IMG/VR virus record: IMGVR_UViG_3300005721_000046 | Source: a virus | Length of the DNA stretch: 64,000 bases | Direction: 5' to 3' (one strand) | Part shown: positions 28,610-61,363 of the stretch, piece after piece | Layout of the letters: each line of letters starts with the position of its first letter | Position numbering within the stretch: position 1 is the first letter of the stretch | Made by a program: the position numbers and the translations under genes | Notes under the pieces: generated by a model | Databases searched by the model: none | Told to the model about the DNA's origin: nothing | The model's input: only the letters and a program-made list of their open reading frames with translations

Positions 28610-29263
28610 ATGCCTTTAATCATTGCCTGTTTGTCACAAAAAGGCGGAGTGGGTAAAAGCACTCTTGCCCGACTTATTGCCAGAACCTACGCAGTCGGTG
28701 GATGGTCGGTAAAAATTGCCGACTTTAACACGACACAGTTGAGTTCGTATAATTGGGCGCAAATTCGCAACGGTGAAGGCCATAAACCAAAAATCGATTC
28801 AGAGCCTGCCACCTCGCCTTCTCTTCTCAAACGCGAAAAATATGATCTGGTTGTCGCTGATGGTCGACCGGACTCCGATCAATCAAGTTTGGAAATCGCG
28901 CGAATAGCTGATCTGATTGTTATACCAACCGGTCTACCGCTAGACGACTTGATGCCACAGTTGCGCTTTGCCAATGAGCTCGTTGAAAAAGGCATAGATC
29001 CTCAAAAAATTCTTTGGGTGCTCAACAAGATCACCGATAGCATAACTGCGGTTGCAGAGGCGCGCGATTATATTCGTCAGGATCAGGATTATCGCATCGC
29101 CGCTCAAGAGCTCATGCACAAGATCAGTTACCAGAAAGCGCAAAACCATGGACTGGCTTTATCGGAAGTTGGTCGTAAGGTTGGTTCGTTGGAAGAAAAG
29201 GCTGATCTATTGGCGGCCGAAATCGTAGAGCTTGTTACCAAGTTGACGGAGGATAAAGAATGA
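28610..29263 (+). CDS. parA: ParA/MinD-family partition ATPase
   Basis: Deviant Walker A 'SQKGGVGKST'. 217 aa (small, type Ib size). Confidence 0.8.
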   Translation: MPLIIACLSQKGGVGKSTLARLIARTYAVGGWSVKIADFNTTQLSSYNWAQIRNGEGHKPKIDSEPATSPSLLKREKYDLVVADGRPDSDQSSLEIARIADLIVIPTGLPLDDLMPQLRFANELVEKGIDPQKILWVLNKITDSITAVAEARDYIRQDQDYRIAAQELMHKISYQKAQNHGLALSEVGRKVGSLEEKADLLAAEIVELVTKLTEDKE

Positions 29264-41886: not shown

Positions 41887-42600
41887 TTAAGACCAATTTT
41901 GATCTTCTTCTATTTGCTTTTTTCTTATTTCGACAGCGCCCTTTAATCGTTCAATGAAGCGTTGCTTTGCCGTCATGATGTCATTACGCGGAAGAATAAT
42001 ATCTGAACCATCAAACTTGGCGAGTGTTTCTGTATAACGAATGGCGATATTCTTATAAGCGATAATACCGGAACCGGGTCGATAATCCTCTATGATCGAA
42101 AAGATATAAAGGAATGAACGCCGCGCTATTTTACGTTGTGCTATCGAAATAGCTTGGTTTATATCTAAAAATGGGCCGCCGCCAATGCCGTCGACACTTA
42201 GACATGGCTTATTAGACGTATCTCGCTGATGTTCTTCAATGTACCAAAAATAGCTTTCTGGCTTTTGTTGCCATTGTTTTTCTTTCTCTTTCGTTTTCTC
42301 GAACGCTTGTTTTAAAGCATAACAATCGCTTTGATTTAAATGATAACCCACGCAGATTTTTTTAACCACATCCGTAGGTAACGTTGTAGTTCCGGCTTCG
42401 AGCCAAGCCAGCAGTGATGCGTGTACGCCAGTCACTCTTTCCATGTCTTCAATACCATGCTTATGGGCCTTTCGTATCGTACGAATTGCAAGTCCAAAAT
42501 CTGTCGTCTCGCTTGGTATCTCGAATAAGCTGTCGCTGTTCTCGACGTTTAAGTCCCAACTCCAGTACCAATTAGTGCTCTTTTTATCTTTAATTGTCAT
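41887..42600 (-). CDS. XRE-family HTH regulator with novel C-terminal domain (paralog 1)
   Basis: HTH 'AIRTIRKAHKHGIEDMERVTGVHASLLAWLEAG'. Along-length similarity to 42726-43421. Confidence 0.55.
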   Translation of the reverse strand: MTIKDKKSTNWYWSWDLNVENSDSLFEIPSETTDFGLAIRTIRKAHKHGIEDMERVTGVHASLLAWLEAGTTTLPTDVVKKICVGYHLNQSDCYALKQAFEKTKEKEKQWQQKPESYFWYIEEHQRDTSNKPCLSVDGIGGGPFLDINQAISIAQRKIARRSFLYIFSIIEDYRPGSGIIAYKNIAIRYTETLAKFDGSDIILPRNDIMTAKQRFIERLKGAVEIRKKQIEEDQNWS

Positions 42601-42667
42601 GCTTTGTTTCCATCTCTATCGTCTCGACGAAACGGTTGTTTGTGCTAATTCTGTGTGATTGAGTGTT

Positions 42668-42722
42668 TATTATAGCTGCAGAAAACGTGGAGAAGTGTCG
42701 GTATGAAAAGGCTTTAAACGCG
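42668..42722 (-). promoter_or_regulatory. repeated promoter-like element copy 4
   Basis: Minus-strand TATAAT at 42669-42674. Confidence 0.55.
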
Positions 42723-42725
42723 TTC

Positions 42726-43421
42726 TCAGGAATAAAACTGGTCTTGTTCTTGTTGTTTTTGCCTTATCTCAACAGCGTTTTTTAAACGTTCGATGAAGCG
42801 TTCCTTTGCCGTCATCATCTCTTTACGCTGAATAATACCTGAGGCGCTAGACTTGGCGAATGTTTCTACAAAACGAATGACGATATTCTTATAAGCAATA
42901 ATACCGGAGCCAGGTCGATAATCCTCTACAACCGAAAAAACATAAACGGTTGACGGCTGTACCACTTTAAATTGTGCTACCGAAATAGCTTGGTCAATAT
43001 CTAAAAATGGACCGCCGCCAATACCATTGTTGTTTTGCGAGGAGGGCTGATGTTCTTCAATGTACCAAAAATAACTTTCTGGCTTTTGTTCCCATTGTTC
43101 TTCTTTGATTTTTGTTTTTCGGAAAGCTTGCCTCAAGGCATAATCATCTTCCTGGCTTAATTGATAACCCACGCAGATTTTCTCATCGACTCCATAAGGC
43201 AATCTTACAATTCCGCTTTCAAGGCAACTCAGTAGGCGATAGTCGACATCGGTCAATCTTCCCATGTCGACGACGGTATGATTATGAGCCTTTCGTATCG
43301 TTCGAATTGCATGACCGAAATTCGTTATTTCACTTAGAATTTCAAATAGGCTGTCATTAGTCTTAAAATCCGAGTCCCAGTTCCAGTGCCAATTAGTGCT
43401 CTTTTTGTCCTTAATTGTCAT
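42726..43421 (-). CDS. XRE-family HTH regulator with novel C-terminal domain (paralog 2)
   Basis: Start set at 'MTIKDKKSTNW', which is conserved with paralog 1. The longest ORF extends to 43448. Confidence 0.55.
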   Translation of the reverse strand: MTIKDKKSTNWHWNWDSDFKTNDSLFEILSEITNFGHAIRTIRKAHNHTVVDMGRLTDVDYRLLSCLESGIVRLPYGVDEKICVGYQLSQEDDYALRQAFRKTKIKEEQWEQKPESYFWYIEEHQPSSQNNNGIGGGPFLDIDQAISVAQFKVVQPSTVYVFSVVEDYRPGSGIIAYKNIVIRFVETFAKSSASGIIQRKEMMTAKERFIERLKNAVEIRQKQQEQDQFYS

Positions 43422-43499
43422 GTTATCGTCGACTCCTAACATCTTCACAAAGTGTCTTTTCTCCCGTTATGGGTTGATAGACGTGTGATTATTGTTGCA

Positions 43500-43697
43500 T
43501 TAAGAGCACTCCTCGAGGGCAATTCTTACAGCCGTATTAACTTGAGCGATAATTCGCTCATCGGTGTCTCCTCGCTTCTTTAAAATACGAACAATGGTAG
43601 TCATAAAAGCGGCCGGTAAGACACGAGCCGACTCGTCGTCAGAAAGTCTTCGATCCGCTTCAATCTTTATTGAAATTTTTGGTAAGTTGTCGGTCAT
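43500..43697 (-). CDS. hypothetical small protein
   Basis: 65 aa ORF with a promoter element upstream. Confidence 0.35.
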   Translation of the reverse strand: MTDNLPKISIKIEADRRLSDDESARVLPAAFMTTIVRILKKRGDTDERIIAQVNTAVRIALEECS

Positions 43698-43776
43698 TTT
43701 GTTTTCTCTTTATTCGGTTCATCTGTCGCGTCAATGAGACGTTCGTTTGTGTTGATTTTGCGTTATTGTATGTTTG

Positions 43777-43835
43777 ATTATAGCTGCAAACAGTGCGGAA
43801 AAATGCTGGGTAAAGAAGGTATTAAACACCTGATA
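43777..43835 (-). promoter_or_regulatory. repeated promoter-like element copy 5
   Basis: Minus-strand TATAAT at 43777-43782. Confidence 0.55.
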
Positions 43836-43873
43836 GAGACAATTGATTCAATGATGAATGGTTTTCGCTGTAA

Positions 43874-44251
43874 TCAATGGATATTGTCGGTTGTGTCGCG
43901 TTCTTTTCCTGATGAATAGCTGGCCGTCAGTGATTGCAAATAATCGCGTTCTGATTGCGATAAATTACCATCAGCTAACGCGGTTGCGATTGTCGCTTTG
44001 ATTATTTCTTTTTCAGCGGATAATGACGGCATTAGCGAATAAAAGAAAAAAAACGCACAAGAAGCAAAAAGAAAACCTCCAGTTATCATTTTCAGTTCGT
44101 CCGTTATTTTTTCTCCAGCCATGCTGACCGCCAGAATTACAAACATCGCTATCCAAAAAAAGATAAATGAAGTTGATGCGGTTACGAAAAAGAATGTTTG
44201 CAAATTGCTCGCGCCGTCACAGCGATAAATTATGCCAATAACGTCATTCAT
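43874..44251 (-). CDS. membrane protein (3 TM)
   Basis: Hydrophobic segments. 4-nt overlap with the upstream gene. Confidence 0.4.
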   Translation of the reverse strand: MNDVIGIIYRCDGASNLQTFFFVTASTSFIFFWIAMFVILAVSMAGEKITDELKMITGGFLFASCAFFFFYSLMPSLSAEKEIIKATIATALADGNLSQSERDYLQSLTASYSSGKERDTTDNIH

Positions 44252-44781
44252 TCTGCGATTTTCTCTTTTATTTCGTTTAAATTTGTTTCGGCCGCGAGCA
44301 ATTCAGCCAATTTTTCTTGAGCCAGAACAATAGCGTCTATGCCGCTGTTAAGCTTTCTTTGCTGGTAAATGTCGAAACAGGTTTGGAAAAATTCGGTTAG
44401 CAGGAAAAAACTAATAGCGAAGCGAACCGCTTGTACGACATCAACTGCCCCAACGCGATTACCGACATGACTAAACAGTTCAATTTGAAAATGAAAATCT
44501 GGTAGTAAAACCATAATATTGGTAAGAATGGATAGCAGAATAAATAAGACAAATTTTTTTCGCCAAACACGTTCGAGGTTGGTTATAAGATATTCGCGAA
44601 GATGCGTTTCTCCTATCGTCGCAGCTTTGGTAACTGTTCTATTAACCAGTTCAAGAGAATATATTCTTGGAAGCGCGAAAATAACATAGGAAATGCTGAG
44701 TTCCGTTAATGTAACGATAGGACTTTGCATAAACACGTAATAGAGAAACGCGAGTATGGCTAAGAAGCAGGCTTTTTTCAT
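44248..44781 (-). CDS. membrane protein (4 TM)
   Basis: Hydrophobic segments. Confidence 0.4.
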   Translation of the reverse strand: MKKACFLAILAFLYYVFMQSPIVTLTELSISYVIFALPRIYSLELVNRTVTKAATIGETHLREYLITNLERVWRKKFVLFILLSILTNIMVLLPDFHFQIELFSHVGNRVGAVDVVQAVRFAISFFLLTEFFQTCFDIYQQRKLNSGIDAIVLAQEKLAELLAAETNLNEIKEKIAE

Positions 44782-44830
44782 TTTTCGGCCTCTAAATGTT
44801 CGTAGTGGGATTCACCGTCTTGTTGTCGGT

Positions 44831-45337
44831 CTAAACTTCTTCGGAAGAGGCGATAGTCGCGTCGTAATAGATAATTTTGATACCGAGTGAGCCTGCGCTA
44901 CCAAGCTGATCAATATGATAAGATGGATCTTCAATATCGATCAGCCCGTTTAGATGTTGTTCGATAATGTCGTTGAACGCATCTCCGGGACTTTTACTCG
45001 GCCAAAGACCTCTTCCGGCTTTAATCGCTGCAGTAAATTTAGGAAGATCGATTTCACACGTTAGATATGTTTCGGCTTTAACGTTAATTGTTTTTATCGA
45101 TCCATCTTCTGTTTCGTTTTGTATTCGCTTTATCAAAAGTTGATTGCGGCGCAGTGAGACGTCAAACTTTGTTTCTCTATTTTCTTCGTCAAAAACCGAA
45201 AAAGTTTCATGAGATTGTTCGGTGTCTAGCTTCTGTAGGCGTTGCGCTACGTCTTTATTTAAGAAAATGTAACTTGCTATTGCGTCTTTGGGATTGCGAG
45301 CGGCTATTTTTTGTTTATTTATGATGAAAAAGTTCAT
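44831..45337 (-). CDS. hypothetical protein
   Basis: 168 aa ORF. Confidence 0.4.
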   Translation of the reverse strand: MNFFIINKQKIAARNPKDAIASYIFLNKDVAQRLQKLDTEQSHETFSVFDEENRETKFDVSLRRNQLLIKRIQNETEDGSIKTINVKAETYLTCEIDLPKFTAAIKAGRGLWPSKSPGDAFNDIIEQHLNGLIDIEDPSYHIDQLGSAGSLGIKIIYYDATIASSEEV

Positions 45338-45349
45338 TTTTATATGCCT

Positions 45350-46036
45350 TCAAACCGTCGCTTCGATTAGTTTTCTTTCGTCAATGACTTTTTTAATTTT
45401 GGCGCGTAAAATAACAGCCGCTGCTGCTGCGTTATATGTCCACTTTCGCATCCATTCATTTTTTTGATGCGAGTAATGAAATCCTCGTTCTTTCAAAAGA
45501 TCAGTAATGTCCGGCGAAGGCTTTTCTGAAAAAATGAATTTTATTCGTTTTTCTTCGGAATTCTGTTCAAGATCAAAGCCGTATTCCGGGTAAGAAAGTC
45601 TCTTTGTTTTAAGCGTTGCGATATGCTTTATTTCCTCAATTCGTTTTTTTAACCGACGAATTTCTGAATATTTTGCGGCTGTCTTATTTTTTTCGGCTTT
45701 TATCTCGGCGAGCTTGGCTTCAAGCTTTTCAACCGCATCCGGATCATCACTTGAAATGCCGCCTTTACCGACTGATTTCGCTTTTTCTTCATAAAATTCC
45801 GCTTTTTCAATTTCTTTGGTCGCACGACTAAAAGCACTGTCAAGCTGGTTTTGAGTCCGTAAATGTTTTTGTTCAGAATAATGACCGCGTAAAACGGGTT
45901 GACCACCTGAGCCCAAAAAGACCTGATGCCGTTCGTGCGCGGCATTCAATATTTCGTCCGATTTTTGTCGAGCTGTTGCGGCTTTTTTGAGCAGTTGTTG
46001 ACGTTTTTGTTCCTGTTTTTCGTAGATATTCGTCAT
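45350..46036 (-). CDS. hypothetical coiled-coil protein
   Basis: 228 aa. Five CCTTATTT repeats lie immediately upstream. Confidence 0.45.
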   Translation of the reverse strand: MTNIYEKQEQKRQQLLKKAATARQKSDEILNAAHERHQVFLGSGGQPVLRGHYSEQKHLRTQNQLDSAFSRATKEIEKAEFYEEKAKSVGKGGISSDDPDAVEKLEAKLAEIKAEKNKTAAKYSEIRRLKKRIEEIKHIATLKTKRLSYPEYGFDLEQNSEEKRIKFIFSEKPSPDITDLLKERGFHYSHQKNEWMRKWTYNAAAAAVILRAKIKKVIDERKLIEATV

Positions 46037-46045
46037 TTTTCAAAA

Positions 46046-46085
46046 CCTTATTTCCTTATTTCCTTATTTCTTTATTTCCCTATTT
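46046..46085 (+). repeat. 5 tandem copies of CCTTATTT (= AAATAAGG), abutting the start of gene 45350-46036
   Basis: Seen directly. Confidence 0.7.
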
Positions 46086-46308
46086 ATGTATATAGGGAGA
46101 TAAAGAAATGCGCGAAGCGGTCTGATTTAACCGTAATGTCAATACTTAGTCACAAAGAAGCGGCATCAGACTTTTCTTGCTTAGTAGGACGTTCGCGCGC
46201 ACCCCGAAAGGAATCTTTGTGACTTGGCATCGTAAGCTGTTTAGTGTCACAGCATCACGTTCTGATATTATGTATAGCGAAAATAAATGTGGAAGTATTG
46301 AGGATGTG

Positions 46309-46707
46309 TCAGGCGTCTGATTGAAGATCGTATTCGTACAACTCGTCTGGATAATTCGATTCGATGAAGTCTCTTGCGCCGTTTTGATATGCGCCGATAA
46401 TCAAATCCTTTTTTTCTGCCTCAAGTCTAGCGTTCAAATTAATCAAACCGTTTATTGTTGCTTCTTTCTGCTGGCACAGCTCGTACATTTTCACCAGATA
46501 CTGCACCTTTTGGTCTTCGATCTTCTCGTGTTGATTCATAAGTTTTTTTACAAATTTAGCGGTTTGATATTTCTTGAAATTGAAAAAACCGAACACTTTT
46601 AAGTCTCCTGAGCTTAAGCTATAACAACTATTTGTTATAGCGTGACAAAAGCTGGACTTTGTTAGGCACGATTGAGTATCGAGCGTCCGGAATAACGATA
46701 CAAACAA
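46309..46707 (-). CDS. hypothetical protein
   Basis: 132 aa ORF. Confidence 0.35.
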   Translation of the reverse strand: MFVSLFRTLDTQSCLTKSSFCHAITNSCYSLSSGDLKVFGFFNFKKYQTAKFVKKLMNQHEKIEDQKVQYLVKMYELCQQKEATINGLINLNARLEAEKKDLIIGAYQNGARDFIESNYPDELYEYDLQSDA

Positions 46708-46787
46708 AAATCGCTTGCCGAAGAAAAATATTCATGGTAGAAAACAAATGCGACAGAATTCTCTTTCTGTTGTTTGTTTTACAAAAA

Positions 46788-47078
46788 TTAACCTTCCTTA
46801 ACTGGAAGGTTTTTTTTTGACTTCGTATTATATCGACCTTCAAGTTCAAATGCCGCTATTTCTGCAATCTGAATCCATGTGCAAGACGGCTTTTTCTCGT
46901 CAACAACGACCAGGAAATGTCGAGGATCGTCAAATACTGCCACTTTTCCTCGAATAGGCGCGGAATTGCCTTTCAGTGTAACGGCTACCGAGCAACCGAC
47001 AAGCTTCTTTTTGGTTGCAAATATATTAATGAACATCGGTGTCATTGTTTGTTTCCCTTTGTATACGCCATTTTTCAA
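46788..47078 (-). CDS. small protein with tentative Sm/Hfq-like fold
   Basis: 'VAVTLKGNSAPIRGKVAVFDDPRHFLVVVDE...IQIAEIAAFEL' resembles the Sm1/Sm2 pattern of Hfq. Weak call. Confidence 0.3.
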   Translation of the reverse strand: MKNGVYKGKQTMTPMFINIFATKKKLVGCSVAVTLKGNSAPIRGKVAVFDDPRHFLVVVDEKKPSCTWIQIAEIAAFELEGRYNTKSKKNLPVKEG

Positions 47079-47280
47079 ATGAAAGGTTCTCGTCTGCGTC
47101 GACTGATGATATGGATTTTTCGATTGCCGCGATCAGAGCGGATCTATCCAGTGTTGAATATTGATCGAAATTTTTGATTGGATTGGGTTGATCAGGAAAG
47201 CTTAAAGCGAACCGGCGACGCATTTCCGCAAGAAAACAAACTGCGGCGAATTCTAAGCGTAGGCGTGAAAGATTCTGCAT
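47026..47280 (-). CDS. hypothetical small protein
   Basis: 84 aa ORF. Confidence 0.3.
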   Translation of the reverse strand: MQNLSRLRLEFAAVCFLAEMRRRFALSFPDQPNPIKNFDQYSTLDRSALIAAIEKSISSVDADENLSFEKWRIQRETNNDTDVH

Positions 47281-47936
47281 AATTAATTAGTCACAATTTT
47301 ATTAGATGGCTAAAAAGCGCGTTGTTACAAGTGGTTAAGTTTTTATAGTTGAATTCAAAGTTGAAAATTGCGGGGTATTTCTTGTTCATTAAAAAAAATT
47401 TTATGGACTCTAACAAAATATTCGATCAGAAAGCGAGAACAAAACGGGAACAGCGGAAAGGGGCGGTTTATGATGCAGTACTCGGATACAAGGATTACGC
47501 GCGCGGCAACTATGCTACGCCGCGATTTAAAATTGACTGTTGGGCGAATATTTAAAGAAAATGGCATTCTTTTTAATGAAGAGGTGTTTTTGCAAAATAC
47601 GTCAATTGATTGGGAACAACTCGTTCAAGAAGCTTTTTGCTATGGAACGGATATAATTCCGCCTCCTGTACCTGTTAAAGAGACATTAGAAATCAATGTT
47701 CAAGTTGAGGTTTTAAACGTATAAAAGTTGTTTCGTGGTTAAAATGAGATTTATAGGCCAACGAATTGAGCAAAAAAGAAAGAAAGTTATTCGTTGACCT
47801 ATAGTTAATTATGAAATATGAAATAGAAAAATGAGTGTTTTGCGTCTGAATTATGTCTTTACGTCATATATTCTCCTTTTGTTTTTTCTTATAATATATT
47901 TATAGCAAAAATGAACTTGGAATGCTGTAGGTAAAT

Positions 47937-48983
47937 CTATATCGCCCAGACCCGATAACGTGATCGGCCAGTAATTTCTCTCAATTGCAACGTCTTTAAA
48001 ATCTTCAATACACCGGCCGGAGAAATATTCAGCGCGGCTGCCGCATTTGTGGTTGTAACGACCGGCGTTGCAATAGCATAATCAATAAAAGCCTTGGTTT
48101 TGGATCCCGCACGTATGTTTTCGGTGCGTTCTTGCAAGCGTTCATAACGGACTTTGATTTTATGAGCGTTACGAATGGCTTGCTCGCTTGAAAGCGCATA
48201 AGCGTCGATATAGGCTTTCAAACGCTTCAAACGATTATGATTTTTGCGGGTATTTAACGGTGTTTGTCTTAAACCCGTTGTTATAGAAGGCAGATAATCA
48301 AGCGATAAATCCACCCGAAGGGCAGTGTTTGCGTATTCAAAGCCAAGCCATGGTTTGTTCGGTATTGGATCGAGGTTAATCCAGGCGTCCAGAAGGATGG
48401 CCGAACGCAAGATTGGCGGTTCGTGCTGCGTTGATTTTATAACCTCTTGCCATTTTTCCCATATTTCATCCTGATTTTTTGGCTTCAGCAATTGCTTAAG
48501 TCGGTTAGGCTTGATTTCAAGTGTCTCCGGATTTTCAAGGATTTTGTTTGTACGCTCTAAGATGGCGTCTATATCTTCCAGCTCTCTTTCAAAATCATCA
48601 ATAGCGGTTTTATCACGTGAAGTTTCGTGAGTTGGCTGTTGTGTCAATTGGAATGAATCTGCTTCAAAGAGCCACTCGCGCTTCTTGGTCTCGATCAAAC
48701 GTCTGGCAGCCAGAATATCCATGGCATCGGCAATATCCTGATTAGAAATTGCAACGTCGGTGTTATATGCGTGGAGCACCAAGTCGTTCAATTCGATCAA
48801 GCCGCCTTGAAGATAGATTGAGGCAACGGCTGAAAAGAAATGTTCGCGACTGTTTAGTCCGTTTTTGAACGTGGATGCCTCGATGAGACCGTTGTAACGC
48901 ATGATTAGCTCGGTCGCTTTTATCAGCGGCTCAAGGAGTTCAGAACGGTCAACCGTAGACGATCTATAATCAATTGATTTCAT
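47937..48983 (-). CDS. hypothetical protein with C-terminal HTH, divergent from integrase
   Basis: 348 aa. C-terminal 'AAALNISPAGVLKILKTLQ' HTH-like. This is a common architecture next to tyrosine recombinases. Confidence 0.45.
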   Translation of the reverse strand: MKSIDYRSSTVDRSELLEPLIKATELIMRYNGLIEASTFKNGLNSREHFFSAVASIYLQGGLIELNDLVLHAYNTDVAISNQDIADAMDILAARRLIETKKREWLFEADSFQLTQQPTHETSRDKTAIDDFERELEDIDAILERTNKILENPETLEIKPNRLKQLLKPKNQDEIWEKWQEVIKSTQHEPPILRSAILLDAWINLDPIPNKPWLGFEYANTALRVDLSLDYLPSITTGLRQTPLNTRKNHNRLKRLKAYIDAYALSSEQAIRNAHKIKVRYERLQERTENIRAGSKTKAFIDYAIATPVVTTTNAAAALNISPAGVLKILKTLQLREITGRSRYRVWAI

Positions 48984-49001
48984 TTAAAAAAATATTTCAC
49001 A

Positions 49002-49028
49002 TTAAACTGAAAGCGGCGTTCAGTTTAA
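49002..49028. promoter_or_regulatory. 10-bp perfect inverted repeat TTAAACTGAA-N7-TTCAGTTTAA in the divergent int promoter region
   Basis: Seen directly. Confidence 0.45.
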
Positions 49029-49141
49029 TCACTACCGATAATAACGCAAGCAGTTTCTAACTAATGATAACTATCCCTTATCGTTAGTGTTGAATAAAAC
49101 CGCAAATCATCGTATGGAGAGATAACTTCAACGAGGATGTT

Positions 49142-50259
49142 ATGAGCGACTTAAATCCGCTTTATTCGGTATTGCCGACAAGACAGGTCGAAAACCTCGG
49201 CCATGAACTCAATAGCGAAGATGTTGCGACATTAAGCTACCTTGTTCAGCAAGGCATGGGCGCAAACACACTGCGCGCTTTGGCCGCCGATCTTGCTTAT
49301 ATCGAATGCTGGTGCAAGGCTGCCACCGGCCATGATCTCGATTGGCCGGCACCTGAGACGCTCATACTCAAATTTATCGCTCATCACCTTTATGATGTCG
49401 CAAGGCACGAAGTTGATAAAAGCCATGGCATGCCGGAAGAGGTTGCCTCGGCCATGATTAAAGCAGGCGTTCTTAAGCATGTCGGACCGCATGCACCTTC
49501 GACTGTCAAGCGCAGATTGTCGTCATGGGCGACATTGACACGATGGAAGGGTCTTGAAGGCGCATTTCAGTCGCCAAAGATAAAGAATGCTATTCGGCTG
49601 GCCGTTCGTGCAAGTGAGCGGCCGCGCCAACGTAAAAGCAAAAAGGCGATAACCATTGACGTATTAATCAAGCTTATTGCGACCTGCGGTCAAAGTCTGG
49701 TTGATATGCGTGACAAAGCAATTCTATTGGTAGCCTTCGCATCAGGTGGTCGACGGCGTTCCGAAATCGCAAGTCTCAGGATGAGCCAATTAACGAGAGA
49801 AGCCGACGTTTTAATCGACGCGCGGGATGCGGGGAAGGGGACTATGCCATGCGCTCGAATTAGGCTTGGGCGCACGAAAACCACGACAAATGATGAGGGC
49901 GATTATGCACTGATTATGGGCAGACCCGTCGTTGCTTTGTATCAATGGATTGAGGCTGCGCACATTGATAAAGGCGCAATTTTCAGGTCGATTGATAGAT
50001 GGGGGAATATCAACAATGTGTCGCTTACAGGCCAGTCGATTAATAATATGATTAAATCGCGCGTCAAAAAAGCCGGATTGGATCCTAACGACTTTTCAGC
50101 TCATGCTTTACGAGCAGGTTATCTCACTGAGGCCGCGCGAAAGGGATATCGCTTCCCGAAGCCATGCAGCAATCAGGCCATAAATCAATACAGCAGGCGG
50201 CACGTTATTATAATGACAGTGAGCGCAGATCAGGCTTAGCGGCGCGACTTATCGATTGA
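49142..50259 (+). pseudogene. int: tyrosine recombinase / phage integrase with +/-1 frameshift near the 3' end
   Basis: The main frame ends 'KGYRFPKPCSNQAINQYSRRHVIIMTVSADQA*' at 50239. The adjacent frame from about 50160 encodes the canonical catalytic tail 'AMQQSGHKSIQQAARYYNDSERRSGLAARLID*' (stop 50257-50259). A single-base indel near 'CCCGAAGCC' (50153-50161) would restore it. Confidence 0.75.
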
Positions 50260-50578
50260 TAGGTCTTGCTTGTTTTACGTGATAGACGGCGACGATGTGA
50301 ATGATTTGGTTGTCGTCAATCAGATAGCGTATTTCGTACCTTTTGCTGACGAGCATTCGCCTTACAGGTGTTTTAGTTTGAAGTCCTTTAACGACCGGAT
50401 GGCTTTCAGGAAAAAGTTTTAAATCTTCAACTGCATCTAAAAGCGCATCAACCAGTTGCTGCACTCTTATCTGACCTGAACCGGACGCTGATTTATCGGT
50501 GCGGATTATAAAATTGGTAATCTCATAAAGTTGGTGAAGAGCATACTCTTCCCATTGAATGGCTTTGATAACATGCAT
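50249..50578 (-). CDS. ParE/RelE-family toxin
   Basis: 109 aa. C-terminal 'RYEIRYLIDDNQIIHIVAVYHVKQ' is a ParE/RelE pattern. Preceded by a small partner gene. Confidence 0.6.
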   Translation of the reverse strand: MHVIKAIQWEEYALHQLYEITNFIIRTDKSASGSGQIRVQQLVDALLDAVEDLKLFPESHPVVKGLQTKTPVRRMLVSKRYEIRYLIDDNQIIHIVAVYHVKQARPINR

Positions 50579-50579
50579 A

Positions 50580-50786
50580 TTAAGAAATGGGATCTGGCCA
50601 AGAAAGAGGTTTATCTGTGAATTTGCTCATGATGAAGCGCCGAACATCTTCATGCCTATAGCTTTTGGCACCAGGTTTTTCCATTTCTTCCAGTGCCCTG
50701 AGCGTGTCAATGTCCATCTCAGCTTCGGTCCAACCTCGTTGAGTCATTTCTTTTAAGTCAGGTGTTTTAACGCTAGCGTGAGACAT
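50580..50786 (-). CDS. putative antitoxin partner
   Basis: 68 aa ORF directly upstream, separated from the toxin gene by one nucleotide. Confidence 0.45.
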   Translation of the reverse strand: MSHASVKTPDLKEMTQRGWTEAEMDIDTLRALEEMEKPGAKSYRHEDVRRFIMSKFTDKPLSWPDPIS

Positions 50787-50863
50787 CGATTACCTTCTCT
50801 AAGTGAATATATCTTAATATATATGAACACATTACAACGTGTCAAATGGTTGTGGTCGGGTTA

Positions 50864-51238
50864 TCATTTAGAGCTAAGACAAATCTCGCGAAGATCCGGG
50901 TCGTCAATCATGTAACAGTTACCTTCGCACGATGCGCGCTCGTCCGGGTCATCAATCATATAGCAAGAGCCTTTACCGGTTTTGCCGAGACACAATGCAC
51001 GTTCTTGCGGATCTTCGATATCATAACAAGAACCGGCTTTTGTTTGGCCAAGACATTGTTGTCGCATCTGTCGGTCATCGATTGCGTAGCAAGAATCCTT
51101 GCCCGATAAACCAAGACATAATGCGCGTTCTTGCGGATCGTTAATGTTGTAACAGTTACCGCCTGCTTGCGCTGTCGCGTTAAAAGCAAGGTTAATTAGA
51201 ACAAATGATATAATGACAGCGATATTTTTGATAAACAT
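50864..51238 (-). CDS. secreted cysteine-rich protein with five tandem ~21-aa repeats (CY-I-DP-ER-LCLG)
   Basis: Signal peptide 'MFIKNIAVIISFVLINLAFNATAQA'. Repeats are seen directly in the translation. Confidence 0.55.
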   Translation of the reverse strand: MFIKNIAVIISFVLINLAFNATAQAGGNCYNINDPQERALCLGLSGKDSCYAIDDRQMRQQCLGQTKAGSCYDIEDPQERALCLGKTGKGSCYMIDDPDERASCEGNCYMIDDPDLREICLSSK

Positions 51239-51548
51239 TTTACTCTACCATCATTAAAAAAGGCATCAAATGACGCCTTTTTTAATGTCTTTTGTTTCTT
51301 CGTGACTTTCATAACATGTTTATAGGAATAATCGACGGCATGTTTATAGGAAAAACCGACACGATTTTCAGTTTTTTGTTTGCCTTTTCTAAACAATTTG
51401 CATTGTCACAAATAAAAACAGTTTGTCGGTTATTATCATCTAAACTATCACAAAAACAAACTCTTGTGGCCGCTTGATAACAAAAACCGCAAATGTCTTT
51501 TCTATGGTTATTAAGCATTTGATAACCTTTTTGTTGCTTAAGATCGGA

Positions 51549-52406
51549 TTATTTTAGACTGACAAATGGCACAGAATTACCGGACATCATTGTACTTGGC
51601 AAAGCACCATTCCAACGTTCAGCCTTTGTAAGATCAATCAAGTCAGGATTGTTATGAAGTGCCTCACTTTTTGCCTTAATTGCATCTGCCGAAGCTTGGC
51701 CCTCGATGCGAATGGACTCGGCTTTGCTTTTTGCTGACGCCAATTGACTATCAGCTAGAGCTTGAGCGCGGGTTACGGTGATTTCGGCTTCAACTTTGGT
51801 ACGTTCGAGTTCTTGCTTTTTTGTTTGAACAGCCATTTCCGCCTGTGCGCGTTGTTCTGCGGCTTCTTCTACGGTCTTCGAGAAGGTAATGTTCTCAATC
51901 TGAACAGCCTCAATCTTAATCAAACCGTCACCGATATTAGAAATAGCTTTTGTAAGCTCGGTGTTTAATCGAGTACGTTCGCGTATGGCTGTATCGGCCG
52001 TAAAAGTACCAAAAACCGAAGCTATTTGTTCCTTTGCCGGTCTTAAAATCATTCGTGAGGCTAAACTATCAAGCGTACCGAAGTTGCGATAGATTTGTTC
52101 AACCTCTCCAGGTAGTGCAGAATAGTTAATCGAGAAAGTAACAGTCGCGGTTTGTCGGTCAGATGTATAAACCGGTACATCCTTAAAATCGCTGGTTTGA
52201 GTGCGAATTGAGATAATTTTGGCGTCGTCAATAAATGGCTTTTTCCAATAAATTCCCGGCGTTGACGTGCTGATGATTTTTGAATTCGACAAAATAACTG
52301 CCCGCTCTCCTTCGTCGACAACGTAAAACGAACCGCCAATGATGGATATTGCGATAACAAAAACAATAAAGCAGATTATTGCCGACACAATTTTAATAAT
52401 GGTCAT
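51549..52406 (-). CDS. SPFH/band-7 (HflK/C, prohibitin-like) domain membrane protein
   Basis: N-terminal TM followed by 'YVVDEGERAVILSNSKI' SPFH start motif. C-terminal coiled coil. Confidence 0.75.
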   Translation of the reverse strand: MTIIKIVSAIICFIVFVIAISIIGGSFYVVDEGERAVILSNSKIISTSTPGIYWKKPFIDDAKIISIRTQTSDFKDVPVYTSDRQTATVTFSINYSALPGEVEQIYRNFGTLDSLASRMILRPAKEQIASVFGTFTADTAIRERTRLNTELTKAISNIGDGLIKIEAVQIENITFSKTVEEAAEQRAQAEMAVQTKKQELERTKVEAEITVTRAQALADSQLASAKSKAESIRIEGQASADAIKAKSEALHNNPDLIDLTKAERWNGALPSTMMSGNSVPFVSLK

Positions 52407-52591
52407 TTATTTTGTTTTTTCCTTTTTTGGTTTTTTTGATCTCGGTATAATGCCCATTTGAAAGCTTGATAGGCGCCAATACCTATCAGACATCCCACGA
52501 CGAACCCGCCTATAAGTTTGTAAATCATATTGATTACCTTACAGTTTTGTGAAAATGATTGAGATTGATAAAATTCGTTGAGGTATGACAA
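52403..52591 (-). CDS. small membrane protein upstream of the SPFH gene
   Basis: 62 aa, one TM and a basic tail. 4-nt overlap. Confidence 0.35.
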   Translation of the reverse strand: MSYLNEFYQSQSFSQNCKVINMIYKLIGGFVVGCLIGIGAYQAFKWALYRDQKNQKRKKQNK

Positions 52592-52640
52592 TCTCGCTAT
52601 ATGTTATAGCGAGATTACTTTTTGACGCTTGCGGGTAATA

Positions 52641-53435
52641 TTAAGCAGCTTCTGCAACAGTTGCTGCAGGAGCTAACAAGTCACGCAACCGATTTGTGAT
52701 TGTATTGTTGGGCAGCAATGTCAGTGTTTGCCCAGAACGATTAGCGATTTTGACGCACGAAAGAAGCGTCATCATCTGCCCTGTTTGCGAACGCGCTGTA
52801 CCTTCGCGTAGACCAGCGTCTTGATACATCTTCACAACTTCGCCGTTAGTCGCTTCGCCTTTTTCTAACAGATAAGCAAACGCCATTTTAGTGTACCGAG
52901 AAGGTTCGCGACCGGCGGCGAGCGAGATAAACAGATTATCGAATTTTTCACCAATTTTTGTCTGCAAAGGCCTAAGCTTAATCACTTCATCCTTGATAGC
53001 ATCCAAGCGTGACTGGTCCAATTTAGAAGGATCTTCTTCGAGAACAAAAAATTCAGCCGGAACTGACGCCAAAGAGTGAACAGAACGTCCGCCTTTTCTC
53101 GTTGAAGACAATTTCTGTTTCTTTTTACTCTTATCGGTCACAGCAGCCGTCACTTCAGAGACCGCTATAGGCGTCACAACCGGCTGTTCTTCGTAAATTT
53201 TTTCTTTCTCGATAGTTGCTTCAATGAGGTTGAGTTCTTCGGATGTAGGCGTTTCAACATTGCTGTCGACAGTGATATTAAGATCAGTAATTTCAGACTG
53301 ATCATTTTGATCACTATCATCGACAACCTCGTCAACCGACTCTTCTTCGCCAATAATATCGTCAAATTCACTCAATGCCTGTTCAAGCGAAACTTCTGTT
53401 TCGTTTGAGGCTTCTGTAATTTCATGTGCACTCAT
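52641..53435 (-). CDS. hypothetical protein with strongly acidic N-terminal half
   Basis: D/E-rich first roughly 90 aa. Confidence 0.4.
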   Translation of the reverse strand: MSAHEITEASNETEVSLEQALSEFDDIIGEEESVDEVVDDSDQNDQSEITDLNITVDSNVETPTSEELNLIEATIEKEKIYEEQPVVTPIAVSEVTAAVTDKSKKKQKLSSTRKGGRSVHSLASVPAEFFVLEEDPSKLDQSRLDAIKDEVIKLRPLQTKIGEKFDNLFISLAAGREPSRYTKMAFAYLLEKGEATNGEVVKMYQDAGLREGTARSQTGQMMTLLSCVKIANRSGQTLTLLPNNTITNRLRDLLAPAATVAEAA

Positions 53436-53511
53436 TTTAGTAGTCCTTCTACTCGATTAGTTTAGTATAGATTGATCATAGAAGTTTTGCGTGTGGAGTG
53501 CGGCAGGTAAA

Positions 53512-54066
53512 TCAAGCTGCTTTTTGTTTACCTGTGGTGTCAGGAAGCTTGTAAAAACCCCATGTTGAGGCTTTGAAGAAGCACTTCATCATTACCTCAA
53601 CATCATAATAGGCGGCGTGTGCTTTGCTTTGATCATAATCAACGCCGCAAGCAAACGCTAATTCGCCCAAGCGCGGCTTTTTCCCGTCAGAAGTCGCCCA
53701 AACACCCTCAAGCATCGTGTCAACAGAAGGCTTCTTAGGCATTATAAGGCCAACTCGCTTTAATTCCTTGGCAATAAAGGGAAGATCAAATTCGTTTCCG
53801 TTATGAGCTATTAACAAATCCGCGCGTGACAAGATTTTTTGCACCATTGGCGCGACCGCTTTCCATTTGGGTTGACCAAATAGATCATTAATCGATATCC
53901 CGTGAACGCGCTGTGAGTCAGCAGATATACCTCTTTCCGGATCAATTCGCTGCTCATATTGCCATATGCGTTTTTCGTCTTTCCATAGACCGACATAAAT
54001 TTCAATAATGCGATGATCGGGCGTTAAAAGACCTGTGGTTTCAATATCAAGTCCGGCGATAATCAT
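53512..54066 (-). CDS. DnaQ-like 3'-5' exonuclease (DEDDh)
   Basis: Exo I 'LDIETTG', Exo II 'AHNGNEFDLPF', Exo III 'HAAYYDVEV'. Confidence 0.8.
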   Translation of the reverse strand: MIIAGLDIETTGLLTPDHRIIEIYVGLWKDEKRIWQYEQRIDPERGISADSQRVHGISINDLFGQPKWKAVAPMVQKILSRADLLIAHNGNEFDLPFIAKELKRVGLIMPKKPSVDTMLEGVWATSDGKKPRLGELAFACGVDYDQSKAHAAYYDVEVMMKCFFKASTWGFYKLPDTTGKQKAA

Positions 54067-58455: not shown

Positions 58456-58683
58456 TTAAAACTCGTCATCCAAATAATCTGCCAAGTCATCAAAACCGCC
58501 AATATGTTCGCCGTTTTGATATATCTGCGGAAAAGTTTTAAAGCCTAATGCTTTAAATTCGGCGATTTCGTCAGGCTCGGCATAAATGATTTCCTGATAA
58601 CTTTCGCCGCTATCTTTGATGGCCTTTTTGGCTTTTTCGCACCAAGGACAGCCGGGTTTTGTGTGAATGACAAAAGTACTCAT
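58456..58683 (-). CDS. glutaredoxin-like redoxin
   Basis: 'KPGCPWCEKAKK' CxxC active site. 75 aa. 4-nt overlap with nrdA. Confidence 0.7.
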   Translation of the reverse strand: MSTFVIHTKPGCPWCEKAKKAIKDSGESYQEIIYAEPDEIAEFKALGFKTFPQIYQNGEHIGGFDDLADYLDDEF

Positions 58684-60389
58684 GCTTCACAAGCCTGACA
58701 TGCAGCCGCGTTCGAGCGTCCTAGCTCTTGAGCTTTATTTAGGCTCTTGTGGTAATAAAGTGATTTCACTCCGCATTTCCAAGCCCGCACGATCAAATCG
58801 ACGTTTTCTCGTTTGTTCATATCAGGATTAATCTTCAAGTTGATTGACTGGCCTTGGTCAATGAAGCGCTGTCTATCACCTGCCTGGCGAATTATCTCGT
58901 GCGGGTCAATCTCGATGAAGGTTTTAAAAATGGATTTTTCTTCATCAGAAAGAAAGTCCAGATGCTGAACAGAACCGGCGTTTTTGAGAATTGACAACCA
59001 AGTTTCACGTGTGTTTTTACCTTTTTCATCCAGCACATGTTCAAGTACCGGGTTTTTCATGGTGAAAACGCCCTTTGCGTTGTCGTTCTCAAAGTAGTTG
59101 GATTCCCACGGCTCAATTGACTGCGATATTTGACCCAGAATAATCGACGAACTAGTTGTTGGCGCGATTGCATTCACACACAAGTGTCTGACACCATAGC
59201 CTTTCAAACCTTCTGGCTCGCCATATTCTGCGGCCATTGCTTTTGAGGCTTTATGAGACATCTCACCAATATACGAATGAACGGCGATATTGAACTCGCG
59301 AGCTTTTTCGCTTTCAAAGGCGATATTATTGGCTTGCAAATACGAATGATAACCGACAACACCCAAACCCAAAGCGCGCCATCTTTTAGAGAATGCATGA
59401 GCACGTTCCATAAACTTAATCGAAGCGGTTTTGTCGATATATTCGCTCATGACAGCGTCGAGAAAATAAATCATTTCCTCAACAAGTGGGGTATTCTTCC
59501 ATTCGTCATAAAAGAGCAAATTAACCGCCGACAGATTACAAACGAAGCTTTCTTCTGCGTTTGAGGGCAGCATGATCTCCGAACAAAGATTGGAAGCGTA
59601 AATCGGTATATTCTTGTCTTTCAAGACCTGCGGTTTTGCTCGATTGACTGTGTCTTTGAAGAAAATATACGGATAGCCGCTTGAACGACGACGTTTAATG
59701 ATTTTAGCCATAATCAGGCGTTTTTTGCCGCCTTTTTCTTCGGCCAACATCTCTTGCATCCATTTGTCACCGATACATACACCGAACGACAAATGTTGAA
59801 TAACATGATGGACGCCATCTGTAATCGAGCGCATCATCAGCCATTCATTAATATCCGGATGCTCAACATCAAGCCAGATGGCGCAATTGCCACGTCGAAT
59901 GTTCGACTGTGAGATAACAGATATTGACTCTTGCAACAGTCGTGCAAAATGAACCGGACCATGTGACTTACCGCCTGCTGATATTGGCGCGCCTTCGGGT
60001 CGTAGTTCGTTCATATAGCATGAAGTCCCCGCGCCTTGTTTGGTCATCATTCCGATTTCTGCGTTAGCTGTCAGAATGGACTCCATATTATCTTCCATGA
60101 AGGATCCATTACATGAGATAGGCAGGCCACGTTTGTTGCCAAAATTCGACCATACGGGAGAAGAGGGCGAGACCCAGCCACGCGCCATGCCTAGCCGAAC
60201 AGTCGGCAGTTTTTTGTTCAAGATGCGTTCGGCTGTATCAACCAGCTGATTGGCTCTTTTTATAGCCTCTTCGCGCAAGTTTGCCTGAGGAATGCCTTCG
60301 CGGAGATAACCGCGCGAAAGCATTGTCAGTGATACATCATTCAACCAGTACCAATCTGGTCGTGTTTTTAGTTTTTGAAGGTAATTCAT
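58680..60389 (-). CDS. nrdA: ribonucleotide reductase large subunit (class I alpha)
   Basis: 'NLCSEIMLP' active-site motif. Paired with R2 upstream. Confidence 0.8.
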   Translation of the reverse strand: MNYLQKLKTRPDWYWLNDVSLTMLSRGYLREGIPQANLREEAIKRANQLVDTAERILNKKLPTVRLGMARGWVSPSSPVWSNFGNKRGLPISCNGSFMEDNMESILTANAEIGMMTKQGAGTSCYMNELRPEGAPISAGGKSHGPVHFARLLQESISVISQSNIRRGNCAIWLDVEHPDINEWLMMRSITDGVHHVIQHLSFGVCIGDKWMQEMLAEEKGGKKRLIMAKIIKRRRSSGYPYIFFKDTVNRAKPQVLKDKNIPIYASNLCSEIMLPSNAEESFVCNLSAVNLLFYDEWKNTPLVEEMIYFLDAVMSEYIDKTASIKFMERAHAFSKRWRALGLGVVGYHSYLQANNIAFESEKAREFNIAVHSYIGEMSHKASKAMAAEYGEPEGLKGYGVRHLCVNAIAPTTSSSIILGQISQSIEPWESNYFENDNAKGVFTMKNPVLEHVLDEKGKNTRETWLSILKNAGSVQHLDFLSDEEKSIFKTFIEIDPHEIIRQAGDRQRFIDQGQSINLKINPDMNKRENVDLIVRAWKCGVKSLYYHKSLNKAQELGRSNAAACQACEA

Positions 60390-60397
60390 TTAAGGTC

Positions 60398-61363
60398 TCA
60401 AAAATCGTCGTCGTCGGTATCGTCCGACTGTGTGTAAGTCGTGGGTTCGCCATGAAAAAAATCGACCTTTGGCGGCGCGTAAATTCCTTCGGTCATCCAG
60501 AAGGTTTTTGCCTCAAGTTCCGGATTGATCTTGAACTGCGGCTTATAACCAATACCCTCAAGACTTTCATTTAGCCGGATAGCGACGAAGGTTTTTAGAA
60601 TTTCGGCATTGAGATTTGGTTGGTTGTAATCACCTAACATCCAATCAACGAGATTGCATTCAGCGGCATATGCAACGTGGCATTCCTCGACAACTTTGGC
60701 TTCCATGTCTGCGTCGAAATATTGCGGATATTCCTCGCGCAAAGTGTTAATGATCTTTGTACCAATCTGGCCGTGCAAGAGCTCTTCGTTTCGTGTGTAC
60801 TTAACTTGCTGAGCCGCGTCTTTCAGTCTGTTTTGAAAGCGGTTCATCCACAAAATGATATAAAATTGGCTGAACAAGCTTACGTTTTCGGTAAACAGCG
60901 TAAACAGAACCAACGAATAGATATATTGCTTCTTGTCGTCGCCATAGACCTTCTGATTGTGCTTGGTGAGGTATTTCACGCGATTAGCAATTGCCGGAAC
61001 ATGAAGATTTTCTTCAAAAATGTTCGACATGCCCATTTTGTCGAGCAGCTTCTCGTAGGCGTCATTGTGAATCTCTTCCGTGTGCGCCATAACCGTTCCA
61101 AGGCTGTCGATCGAAGGATGAGGAAGATTGTCGCCAAGGCGTGCCCAAAACTTTTTAACCTGAACCTCGATTTGTGCAATTGCCGCAAGACAACGCGAAA
61201 CGATTACACGTTCTTGATCGGTCATTTTAAGCCGGAAATCATTTACGTCACTGTCAAAGGAAAATTTCTGCGCGTTCCAAAAGCCGTCCCACATCGCCTG
61301 GATAAAATCTTTTGTCCAGGGATAATGATTGGGCTTACGCGCTACTTGTTTATCAAATAGCAT
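60398..61363 (-). CDS. nrdB: ribonucleotide reductase small subunit (R2)
   Basis: Di-iron ligand motifs 'EEIHNDAY' and 'EELLHGQ'. C-terminal 'DDDDF'. Confidence 0.8.
   Translation of the reverse strand: MLFDKQVARKPNHYPWTKDFIQAMWDGFWNAQKFSFDSDVNDFRLKMTDQERVIVSRCLAAIAQIEVQVKKFWARLGDNLPHPSIDSLGTVMAHTEEIHNDAYEKLLDKMGMSNIFEENLHVPAIANRVKYLTKHNQKVYGDDKKQYIYSLVLFTLFTENVSLFSQFYIILWMNRFQNRLKDAAQQVKYTRNEELLHGQIGTKIINTLREEYPQYFDADMEAKVVEECHVAYAAECNLVDWMLGDYNQPNLNAEILKTFVAIRLNESLEGIGYKPQFKINPELEAKTFWMTEGIYAPPKVDFFHGEPTTYTQSDDTDDDDF

Follow-up and report, generated by a model that had tools for sequence, protein, structure and literature searches.

One missing base puts a phage-borne, putatively Cre-like recombinase out of frame before its predicted catalytic tyrosine and is shared with a Bartonella apis chromosomal remnant

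The IMG/VR virus record IMGVR_UViG_3300005721_000046 was analysed over a stretch of 64,000 nucleotides (nt), here called the window, which by its gene content we assign to an SSU5-like siphophage of honeybee-gut Bartonella. The open reading frame (ORF) list of the window gives a tyrosine recombinase of 365 amino acids (aa) at 49142..50239 on the plus strand. An earlier note on this DNA had described the gene as internal to the phage genome and broken by a single missing or extra base around 50153-50161, just before the catalytic tyrosine, and had offered decay of the integrase in an element now maintained as a plasmid, or an assembly error, as explanations. The gene is indeed internal, with structural genes on one side and nucleotide metabolism at 56-61 kb on the other, and the break before the tyrosine is real in the sequence. 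Here, we show where the base was lost, that the same deletion is found in chromosomal remnants of Bartonella apis and that related phages carry the gene intact.

The first 335 residues of the ORF (frame 0, codons 1-335, Met1-Gly335; 49142..50146, +) align to tyrosine recombinases, and the frame is kept through Gly335, giving an identical prefix of 335 residues. The final 30 residues, YRFPKPCSNQAINQYSRRHVIIMTVSADQA, are without any match. In a three-frame translation, frame 0 reads ...SAHALRAGYLTEAARKG and then runs into this aberrant tail of 30 unrelated codons and a stop (50147..50239, +), while the -1 frame, open from 50130 and stopping at 50259, encodes GISLPEAMQQSGHKSIQQAARYYNDSERRSGLAARLID (translated as ...KGISLPEAMQQSGHKSIQQAARYYNDSERRSGLAARLID up to its end at 50259). 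The true C-terminus, Ile336-Asp372 plus stop, thus lies in the -1 frame (50146..50259, +), where it is 100% identical to residues 334-371 of the protein of the related phage contig L001. Joining the two frames yields a protein of exactly 372 aa, as the earlier note had anticipated. The repaired protein matches Pfam PF00589 (Phage_integrase) over residues 170-360 with 59.4 bits against a cut-off of 27.1, matches PHROG 1 'integrase' with an E value of 4.4e-23, and aligns over its full length to the intact 372-aa protein P0001 at 98% identity.

DNA alignments to phage relatives place the lesion at one A absent at 50146/50147, taken from an AA pair. Where the related phage L015 reads CGAAAGGGAATATCG the window reads CGAAAGGGATATCG, aligned as CGAAAGGGA-TATCG. 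The intact allele at this site is GGGAATATCG, and the lesion (50140..50147, +) is the ancestral GGA-ATA minus one A, that is, AAAGGGAATA changed to AAAGGGATA, as seen in alignments to L001, L011-L015, L024 and L025. The base was lost and not gained, given that the gene measures 1119 nt in all eight aligned contigs (L001, L002, L005, L011-L015) and 1118 nt in the window, and the A run is 2 nt, not a long homopolymer. Hence, of the note's 'missing or extra base' only the first half holds, and the true site lies 7-15 nt upstream of the interval it had named. Besides the deletion, the window copy has no second lesion.

Alignment to Cre gives Arg206, Lys246, His321, Arg324, His347 and Tyr356 as the catalytic residues, and the break falls 21 codons ahead of Tyr356. 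Arg206, Lys246, His321 and Arg324 are retained in frame 0; His347 and the nucleophile Tyr356 are encoded by the -1-frame C-terminus, to which Cre W315 and Y324 align. The R-K-H-R-H/W-Y set is therefore absent from any one polypeptide of the 365-aa ORF as encoded, and is complete only with the missing base put back. Because His347 and Tyr356 fall past the break, the encoded protein is predicted to be unable to cleave DNA and to be catalytically inactive. The exact 365-aa ORF has no entry in the contig index, and the cluster table has one JGI/IMG contig for it, of 73,455 bp.

The gene is intact, 372 aa long and in the same syntenic position in 12 of 12 related phage contigs (L001, L002-L004, L005, L011-L015, L024 and L025), which share 71-99% DNA identity with the window gene; L024 and L025 hold partial genes, yet these are in frame across the lesion site. 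Comparison with homologous integrases and related elements, which the earlier note had proposed as a check, thus returns a single-frame gene in the relatives. The nearest relative, L013, is 99.2% identical at the nucleotide level and differs by eight synonymous changes and one non-synonymous change. Using the Nei-Gojobori method, the ratio of non-synonymous to synonymous substitution rates (dN/dS) between the repaired window gene and its phage relatives is 0.04-0.12, and phages only 71-72% identical in DNA are still 79% conserved in amino acids. These values point to a recombinase maintained by purifying selection in the phage lineage. Of the 18 genes that the window has in common with the syntenic L001, the recombinase is the only one frameshifted. 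Near-identical DNA was not found in public phage and plasmid records, a search of IMG/VR returned neither the frameshift allele nor a relative of the protein, and a scan of JGI metagenomes for the allele gave no match.

These comparisons bear on the proposal that a plasmid lifestyle has made the integrase dispensable and that it is eroding across the lineage. Parts of the element are indeed of plasmid type, namely ParA and the ParE toxin-antitoxin pair, it is related to SSU5, and fragments of the recombinase gene are decaying in Bartonella chromosomes. However, the intact gene in all 12 relatives largely refutes lineage-wide decay, and dN/dS stays at 0.04-0.12 even between phages at the lowest DNA identity. 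Moreover, the window copy has not gathered a second lesion, and the enzyme is of a plasmid type that sits beside maintenance genes in rhizobia and would be useful in the plasmid state. Given the low dN/dS and the intact relatives the lineage keeps the gene, and together with the missing second lesion this makes the break young and strain-specific. We thus regard decay in a plasmid element, as the earlier note had put it, as very improbable, although the other half of its suggestion fares better, given that the element does look like a phage-plasmid.

The only genome match to the allele is in B. apis PEB0122 (NZ_LXYU01000005.1), where 36 nt including the deletion match exactly. The PEB0122 locus is 94% identical to the window over 49624-50760 and 84-86% further on, and upstream of 49624 it runs into PAAR-motif genes. 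It contains the 3' two-thirds of the recombinase gene, the ParE gene, the antitoxin, a Cys-repeat protein and a Band_7 protein. The remnant spans about 6 kb (L017, which is NZ_LXYU01000005.1, 1-4100, and L021-L023), and its junction to a PAAR-motif, type VI secretion-like cluster lies inside the recombinase gene. The frameshifted remnant ORF of 197 aa, P0122 (WP_225867854.1), is present on 15 contigs from several samples, and an in-frame 204-aa version of the truncated gene, P0130, also exists. Since it is present in chromosomal remnants, the deletion is a real allele in the gene pool. The dN/dS between window and remnant is 0.33, which argues for relaxed selection on the remnant as a dead copy. 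The chromosomal copies that we see are truncated remnants joined within the gene, not at the repeats upstream of it. Separately, the chromosomes of B. apihabitans and Bartonella sp. W8122 carry 70-80-aa C-terminal fragments of the recombinase (P0123-P0129, on contigs up to 2.38 Mb) in which the catalytic His is replaced by Leu (SALALRAG), and these appear to be further decayed copies.

The variable sites around the deletion form a mosaic. Within 49600-50800, the window and L013 show ten differences (49765, 49777, 50021, 50023, 50032, 50134, 50137, 50143, the deletion and 50178), and at nine of them the window has the remnant allele. Several of these sites are simply private to the L013 clade. 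L024 and L025 carry the L013 haplotype at the seven single-nucleotide differences from 50021 on and are in frame at the deletion site. Based on the table of variable sites and the comparison with L024, the tract with the remnant haplotype extends at most over 50111..50198 (+) and holds 50134 C, 50137 G, 50143 G, the deletion and 50178 C. Its limits are set by 50110 A and 50199 G, alleles found only in the window and the L013 clade and not in the remnant, so that the remnant-like stretch measures 45-88 bp. At all other remnant-diagnostic sites in 49833-50314 (49921, 49933, 49950, 49955, 49962, 49963, 50110, 50199 and 50288-50297) the window keeps the phage allele. This pattern would fit a short gene-conversion tract. 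A second remnant-derived tract at 49765-49777 was considered and rejected, since it is not clean, with 49774 keeping a non-remnant allele.

A random sequencing or homopolymer error in this assembly alone would also remove a base, and the site does sit in a short A3G3A run. But the base was lost from a run of two, and such an error must have recreated an exact natural allele together with its linked single-nucleotide differences. Independent assemblies reproduce about 32 kb of the window and show not one indel in it: ENA ERZ12633344 NODE_34 is 100% identical over 6451-27353 and 99.975% identical over 41937-49832 (two mismatches, no gaps), the Logan contigs of SRR5237156 are 100% identical in their overlaps, and the JGI 3300000333 contig HBC_ctgsDRAFT_1000174 is 100% identical over 50179-53578. 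Together with the single frameshift among 18 common genes and an unsplit gene for the large terminase (TerL), this makes a random indel error improbable, and we consider that reading extremely unlikely. The apparent split of TerL into ORFs of 223 aa and 444 aa had been tried as a sign of error and was rejected, given that Rhizobium phage B1VFA likewise has two genes there, the first HTH/TerS-like and the second a TerL of 422 aa. A generally error-prone assembly was likewise rejected: the TerL layout is normal and no other gene common with L001 is frameshifted.

More serious is an assembly micro-chimera, in which a sample held both a phage with an intact gene and a frameshifted B. apis remnant, and the assembler, or a step of consensus calling or merging, took the remnant variant for some tens of bases. 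The deletion is identical to the remnant allele, and B. apis chromosomes contain a 94%-identical copy of 49624-50760. At this site the near-identical L024 (JGI 3300000333) keeps the reading frame, and from 50179 on it matches the window at 100% identity. Assemblies of the same strain end at 49741 (SRR5237156_10500), 49832 (ERZ12633344 NODE_34), 50005 (HBC_ctgsDRAFT_1000174) and 50315 (ERZ12633344 NODE_479), each within a stretch common to the chromosomal remnant. The interval 49741-50315 is a repeat-induced assembly break point with a tangled graph, and remnant-shared regions of this kind show why metagenome assemblies break there. On the other hand, the remaining remnant-diagnostic sites in 49833-50314 all show the phage allele in the window. 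An assembly path would have to change over within flanks of 23 nt and 20 nt, less than the length of usual k-mers, and coverage-driven bubble popping would be expected to convert neighbouring sites too. We therefore hold a micro-chimera to be possible but considerably less probable than a real allele. Of the earlier note's suspicion of an assembly error, the plain form is unlikely, given the same deletion in B. apis remnants and some 32 kb free of indels, and this chimeric form is the part that survives.

A programmed -1 ribosomal frameshift would make the lesion functional, with slippage on A_AAG_GGA (50140-50146) giving the full-length wild-type protein (..RKGISL..) in addition to the short product. 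The deletion does create a formal X_XXY_YYZ heptamer in frame 0 at the junction, and a -1 slip there yields exactly the wild-type sequence. However, the gene is a single frame in 12 of 12 phage relatives, which have no need of a shift, and the heptamer also occurs in L015, whose frame is unbroken. The 84 nt downstream are less stable than shuffled sequence (z +1.27) and thus offer no stimulatory structure, the heptamer occurs 7 times in the window compared with 7.9 expected, and the same allele is found in a truncated, dead remnant. On the fold, the heptamer count, the unbroken L015 frame and the remnant allele, we reject programmed frameshifting, which is the least credible of the readings considered. 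Unprogrammed low-level slippage at A_AAG_GGA is possible.

Weighing these comparisons, we consider the deletion probably a real, recent loss-of-function allele that phage and chromosomal remnants have in common through short-patch recombination. An exchange of this kind by homologous recombination (gene conversion), with a remnant and the phage as partners, would be the most economical history. Transfer likely ran from the remnant into the phage, since the frameshift is neutral in an already dead copy, where it is frequent, and detrimental in phages, where it is seldom seen. Several points weigh against this account. Phage L015 has the 50134 and 50143 alleles too, which leaves the deletion as the one feature that marks the remnant. 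No contig but this one has the frameshift in a full-length phage setting, and three to four independent assemblies, made from this strain or one nearly identical to it, stop within 49741-50315; the region is therefore hard to assemble where phage and B. apis chromosome co-occur. Further, no plasmid replication initiator was identified in the 64-kb window and the ParA-like protein scores below the NCBIfam cut-off, and the role and site of the enzyme, the plasmid state and the remnant-to-phage direction are what we infer. What the sequences show is the lesion and its exact position, the intact relatives, the purifying selection, the common allele and the mosaic tract.

The recombinase gene is part of a larger module. 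Divergent from it lies a partner gene (47937..48983, -) of the RHE_PE00001 family, with DUF1612 and a C-terminal HTH_13 domain in Pfam; it matches NCBIfam NF040876 (RHE_PE00001_fam) with an E value of 4.6e-70 and 236.7 bits, which is just under the cut-off of 250, and is syntenic in all related phages. No paper linking DUF1612 with integrases was found in the literature. On the other side, a ParE-family toxin (50249-50578; PF05016) and a putative antitoxin (50580-50786), together 50249..50786 on the minus strand, are convergent with the recombinase gene, with an 11-nt overlap at its 3' end. By its composition, a RHE_PE00001/DUF1612-HTH gene, two inverted repeats, the recombinase, and ParE with its antitoxin, the module appears to be of the plasmid-maintenance type.

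The first of the two repeats, ACTAATGATAA-CTATCCC-TTATCGTTAGT (49060..49088), has an 11-7-11 layout, occurs only once in the window, at 54 nt upstream of the start codon, and is fully conserved even though the phages are only 71-72% identical across the integrase gene. We take it as the likely core site at which the recombinase would bind or recombine. A promoter-like match overlapping this repeat was rejected as no more than chance. The second, ATTAAACTGAAAGC-G-GCGTTCAGTTTAAT (49001..49029), has arms that are conserved between phages and a variable centre, and could be an operator or accessory site. A possible third half-site, TCACTACCGATAA, is seen at 49029-49041. Related repeats of the form CGATAA-N7/9-TTATCG precede the homologous integrase genes of Ensifer and Rhizobium plasmids (L026 3361-3395; L027 1207-1239), and we propose these inverted repeats as a candidate recombination site for the whole uncharacterised family of plasmid recombinases. 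The integrases in question are 58% identical to the recombinase here.

From the plasmid-type module, the conserved repeats and what is known of P1 Cre and phage-plasmids (PMC7969092), we infer that the recombinase is a multimer-resolution or circularisation enzyme of a plasmid prophage. Under the favoured explanation, a Cre-like recombinase of Hyphomicrobiales plasmid type would be carried by SSU5-like bee-gut Bartonella phages within a maintenance module and would act at the single 11-7-11 repeat just upstream of its own gene, with multimer resolution or circularisation of the plasmid prophage as the outcome, in the manner of Cre at the loxP site of P1. In the window, loss of one A takes away His347 and Tyr356 and with them, by prediction, DNA cleavage. 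One could go further and picture the B. apis remnants as a reservoir of the disabling allele, a 'poisoned template' that converts the recombinase of an incoming phage-plasmid, knocks out multimer resolution and destabilises the plasmid prophage, with spontaneous -1 slippage at A_AAG_GGA perhaps giving partial rescue. We regard this as an improbable speculation; if true, a host-side 'poisoned template' would shape phage-plasmid persistence.

Elsewhere in the window, structural genes lie at about 3-22 kb and by PHROG matches include the tape-measure protein (6697-11436, -), the major head protein (16451-17353), the portal (18616-20199) and the large terminase (20305-21639). The portal is 61% identical to that of Rhizobium phage B1VFA and 51-52% identical to those of SSU5 and of Klebsiella and Escherichia SSU5-like phage-plasmids (92% of its length for SSU5); together with the PHROG matches of major head, TerL and tape-measure proteins this identifies an SSU5-like virion module. 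The tape-measure protein, of 1579 aa, has a C-terminal Peptidase_M15_4/endolysin-like domain and matches PHROG 1768 'endolysin' with an E value of 4e-182. A helicase gene is among the PHROG matches, and the nucleotide-metabolism genes at 56-61 kb are those for Thy1, dCTP deaminase/dUTPase and the ribonucleotide reductase subunits (58680-61363). A ParA-like partition ATPase is encoded at 28610..29263 (+) with matches to CbiA in Pfam (3.3e-7) and PHROG 164 and an E value of 2.2e-21 to NCBIfam ParA_partition. The window also holds two ParB_N proteins and two HTH_31 regulators, and no tRNA was found in its 64 kb. Relatives of the recombinase are on separate contigs of 103.2-103.4 kb, and SSU5 measures 103.3 kb. 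With its SSU5-like character, ParA-like ATPase and ParE toxin-antitoxin pair, the element looks like a phage-plasmid. The host is taken to be honeybee-gut Bartonella because B. apis PEB0122 is the only genome match of the allele and because cluster members are annotated as B. apis, B. apihabitans and Bartonella sp. W8122. In the literature, no paper linking B. apis with phage-plasmids was found, and a survey of bee prophages (PMC10259446) has nothing specific on this element.

Further features are found in the window and its relatives. The adjacent HTH_31 (XRE-type) regulators at 41887-42600 and 42726-43448 are paralogues with about 75% DNA identity, their copy number varies across related contigs, and they may be lysogeny or immunity regulators. 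The protein encoded at 50864-51238 (-) is 124 aa long, with five Cys-rich repeats (CY.IDDP.ERA.CLG) and an N-terminus that resembles a signal peptide; it matches no family significantly and is conserved in the chromosomal remnant as well as in related phages. L001 (5937-6257), L014 and L015 have a 106-aa ORF that is absent from the window (51243-51311) and from L013, a small presence/absence polymorphism between the gene for this Cys-repeat protein and a 69-aa ORF. The related phage on L002 (ENA ERZ12593050 NODE_15), with a recombinase 79% identical, is assembled as a contig of 168,142 bp, larger than the relatives of about 103 kb. Its coverage of 1133 is about 2.6 times that of a B. apis chromosomal contig in the same sample (L021, NODE_336, coverage 435), which is compatible with an extrachromosomal or replicating element.

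For annotation, the gene should be entered as a disrupted Cre-like, plasmid-type recombinase of 372 aa when repaired, not as a 365-aa integrase, and should not be read as a sign that the phage integrates into the chromosome. It appears to be no leftover chromosomal integrase. A frameshifted recombinase in a single phage contig is in itself routine. An identical lesion in a phage and in chromosomal remnants, however, is a clean small example of allele exchange between phages and the phage debris of their hosts. SSU5-like phages of bee-gut Bartonella with a module otherwise known from rhizobial plasmids would bring a phage-plasmid lifestyle to a well-studied gut community, for which we found no describing paper.

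Among solved structures the recombinase appears closest to Cre. The top 17 PDB matches are all Cre or its derivative Tre (E values of 9e-5 to 5e-4, residues 120-371, at low identity), and XerD ranks far below Cre and its derivatives. XerC and XerD, acting at dif, cer and psi, are tyrosine recombinases too and resolve chromosome or plasmid multimers at a short inverted repeat, but their N-terminal half is unlike that of the recombinase here, and membership of this group was rejected given scores of 35-46 bits with the NCBIfam Xer models compared with cut-offs of 220-335. Close to the recombinase are the 'site-specific integrases' of Hyphomicrobiales plasmids, such as those of Ensifer adhaerens pD (WP_255382690.1) and Beijerinckia indica (NC_010580.1), which often have a RHE_PE00001-family gene. 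Homologues occur in 2182 plasmid records, mostly from Rhizobium, Agrobacterium and Sinorhizobium, with 57-62% identity over 99% of the length, and the window has both this integrase type and the adjacent RHE_PE00001/DUF1612 gene. No experimental paper on this integrase family was found. On pD, the integrase is followed by ParE/ParD beside repCBA, and the order of integrase, ParE and antitoxin is the same in the window. The partner gene is not universal on plasmids: pD has a 140-aa hypothetical protein and pC6.5b a DUF1403 protein. Unlike on the plasmids, the module here lies inside a tailed-phage genome of about 42% G+C, and a tblastn search of the phage collection found no close homologue of the recombinase in SSU5-like and Rhizobium phages.

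In its virion genes, the element shares the order TerS-like, TerL, portal and capsid with SSU5/pHCM2-type phage-plasmids and with Rhizobium phages B1VFA and RHEph10, as well as the presence of ribonucleotide reductase genes. It differs from them in its bee-gut Bartonella host, and its plasmid state is a predicted one. In its recombinase, it can be compared with P1. Both domains of Cre (PDB 1crx, 1nzb, 7rhz and others) align to residues 120-371, with Arg206, Lys246, His321, Arg324 and Tyr356 opposite R173, K201, H289, R292 and Y324, and the two proteins have in common a GRTKT motif around Lys246/K201 and a C-terminal motif G(V/I)S(I/L)PE(I/A)MQ. The sequence relationship to Cre is distant (E value of about 1e-4), His347 occupies the position of Cre Trp315, the candidate site is 11-7-11 where loxP is 13-8-13, P1 is without the divergent RHE_PE00001/DUF1612-HTH partner, and the window copy is frameshifted. 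Still, in both systems the recombinase gene has a single short inverted-repeat site nearby (here a candidate) and is carried by a phage able to live as a plasmid (here predicted), and P1 Cre resolves multimers (PMC7969092).

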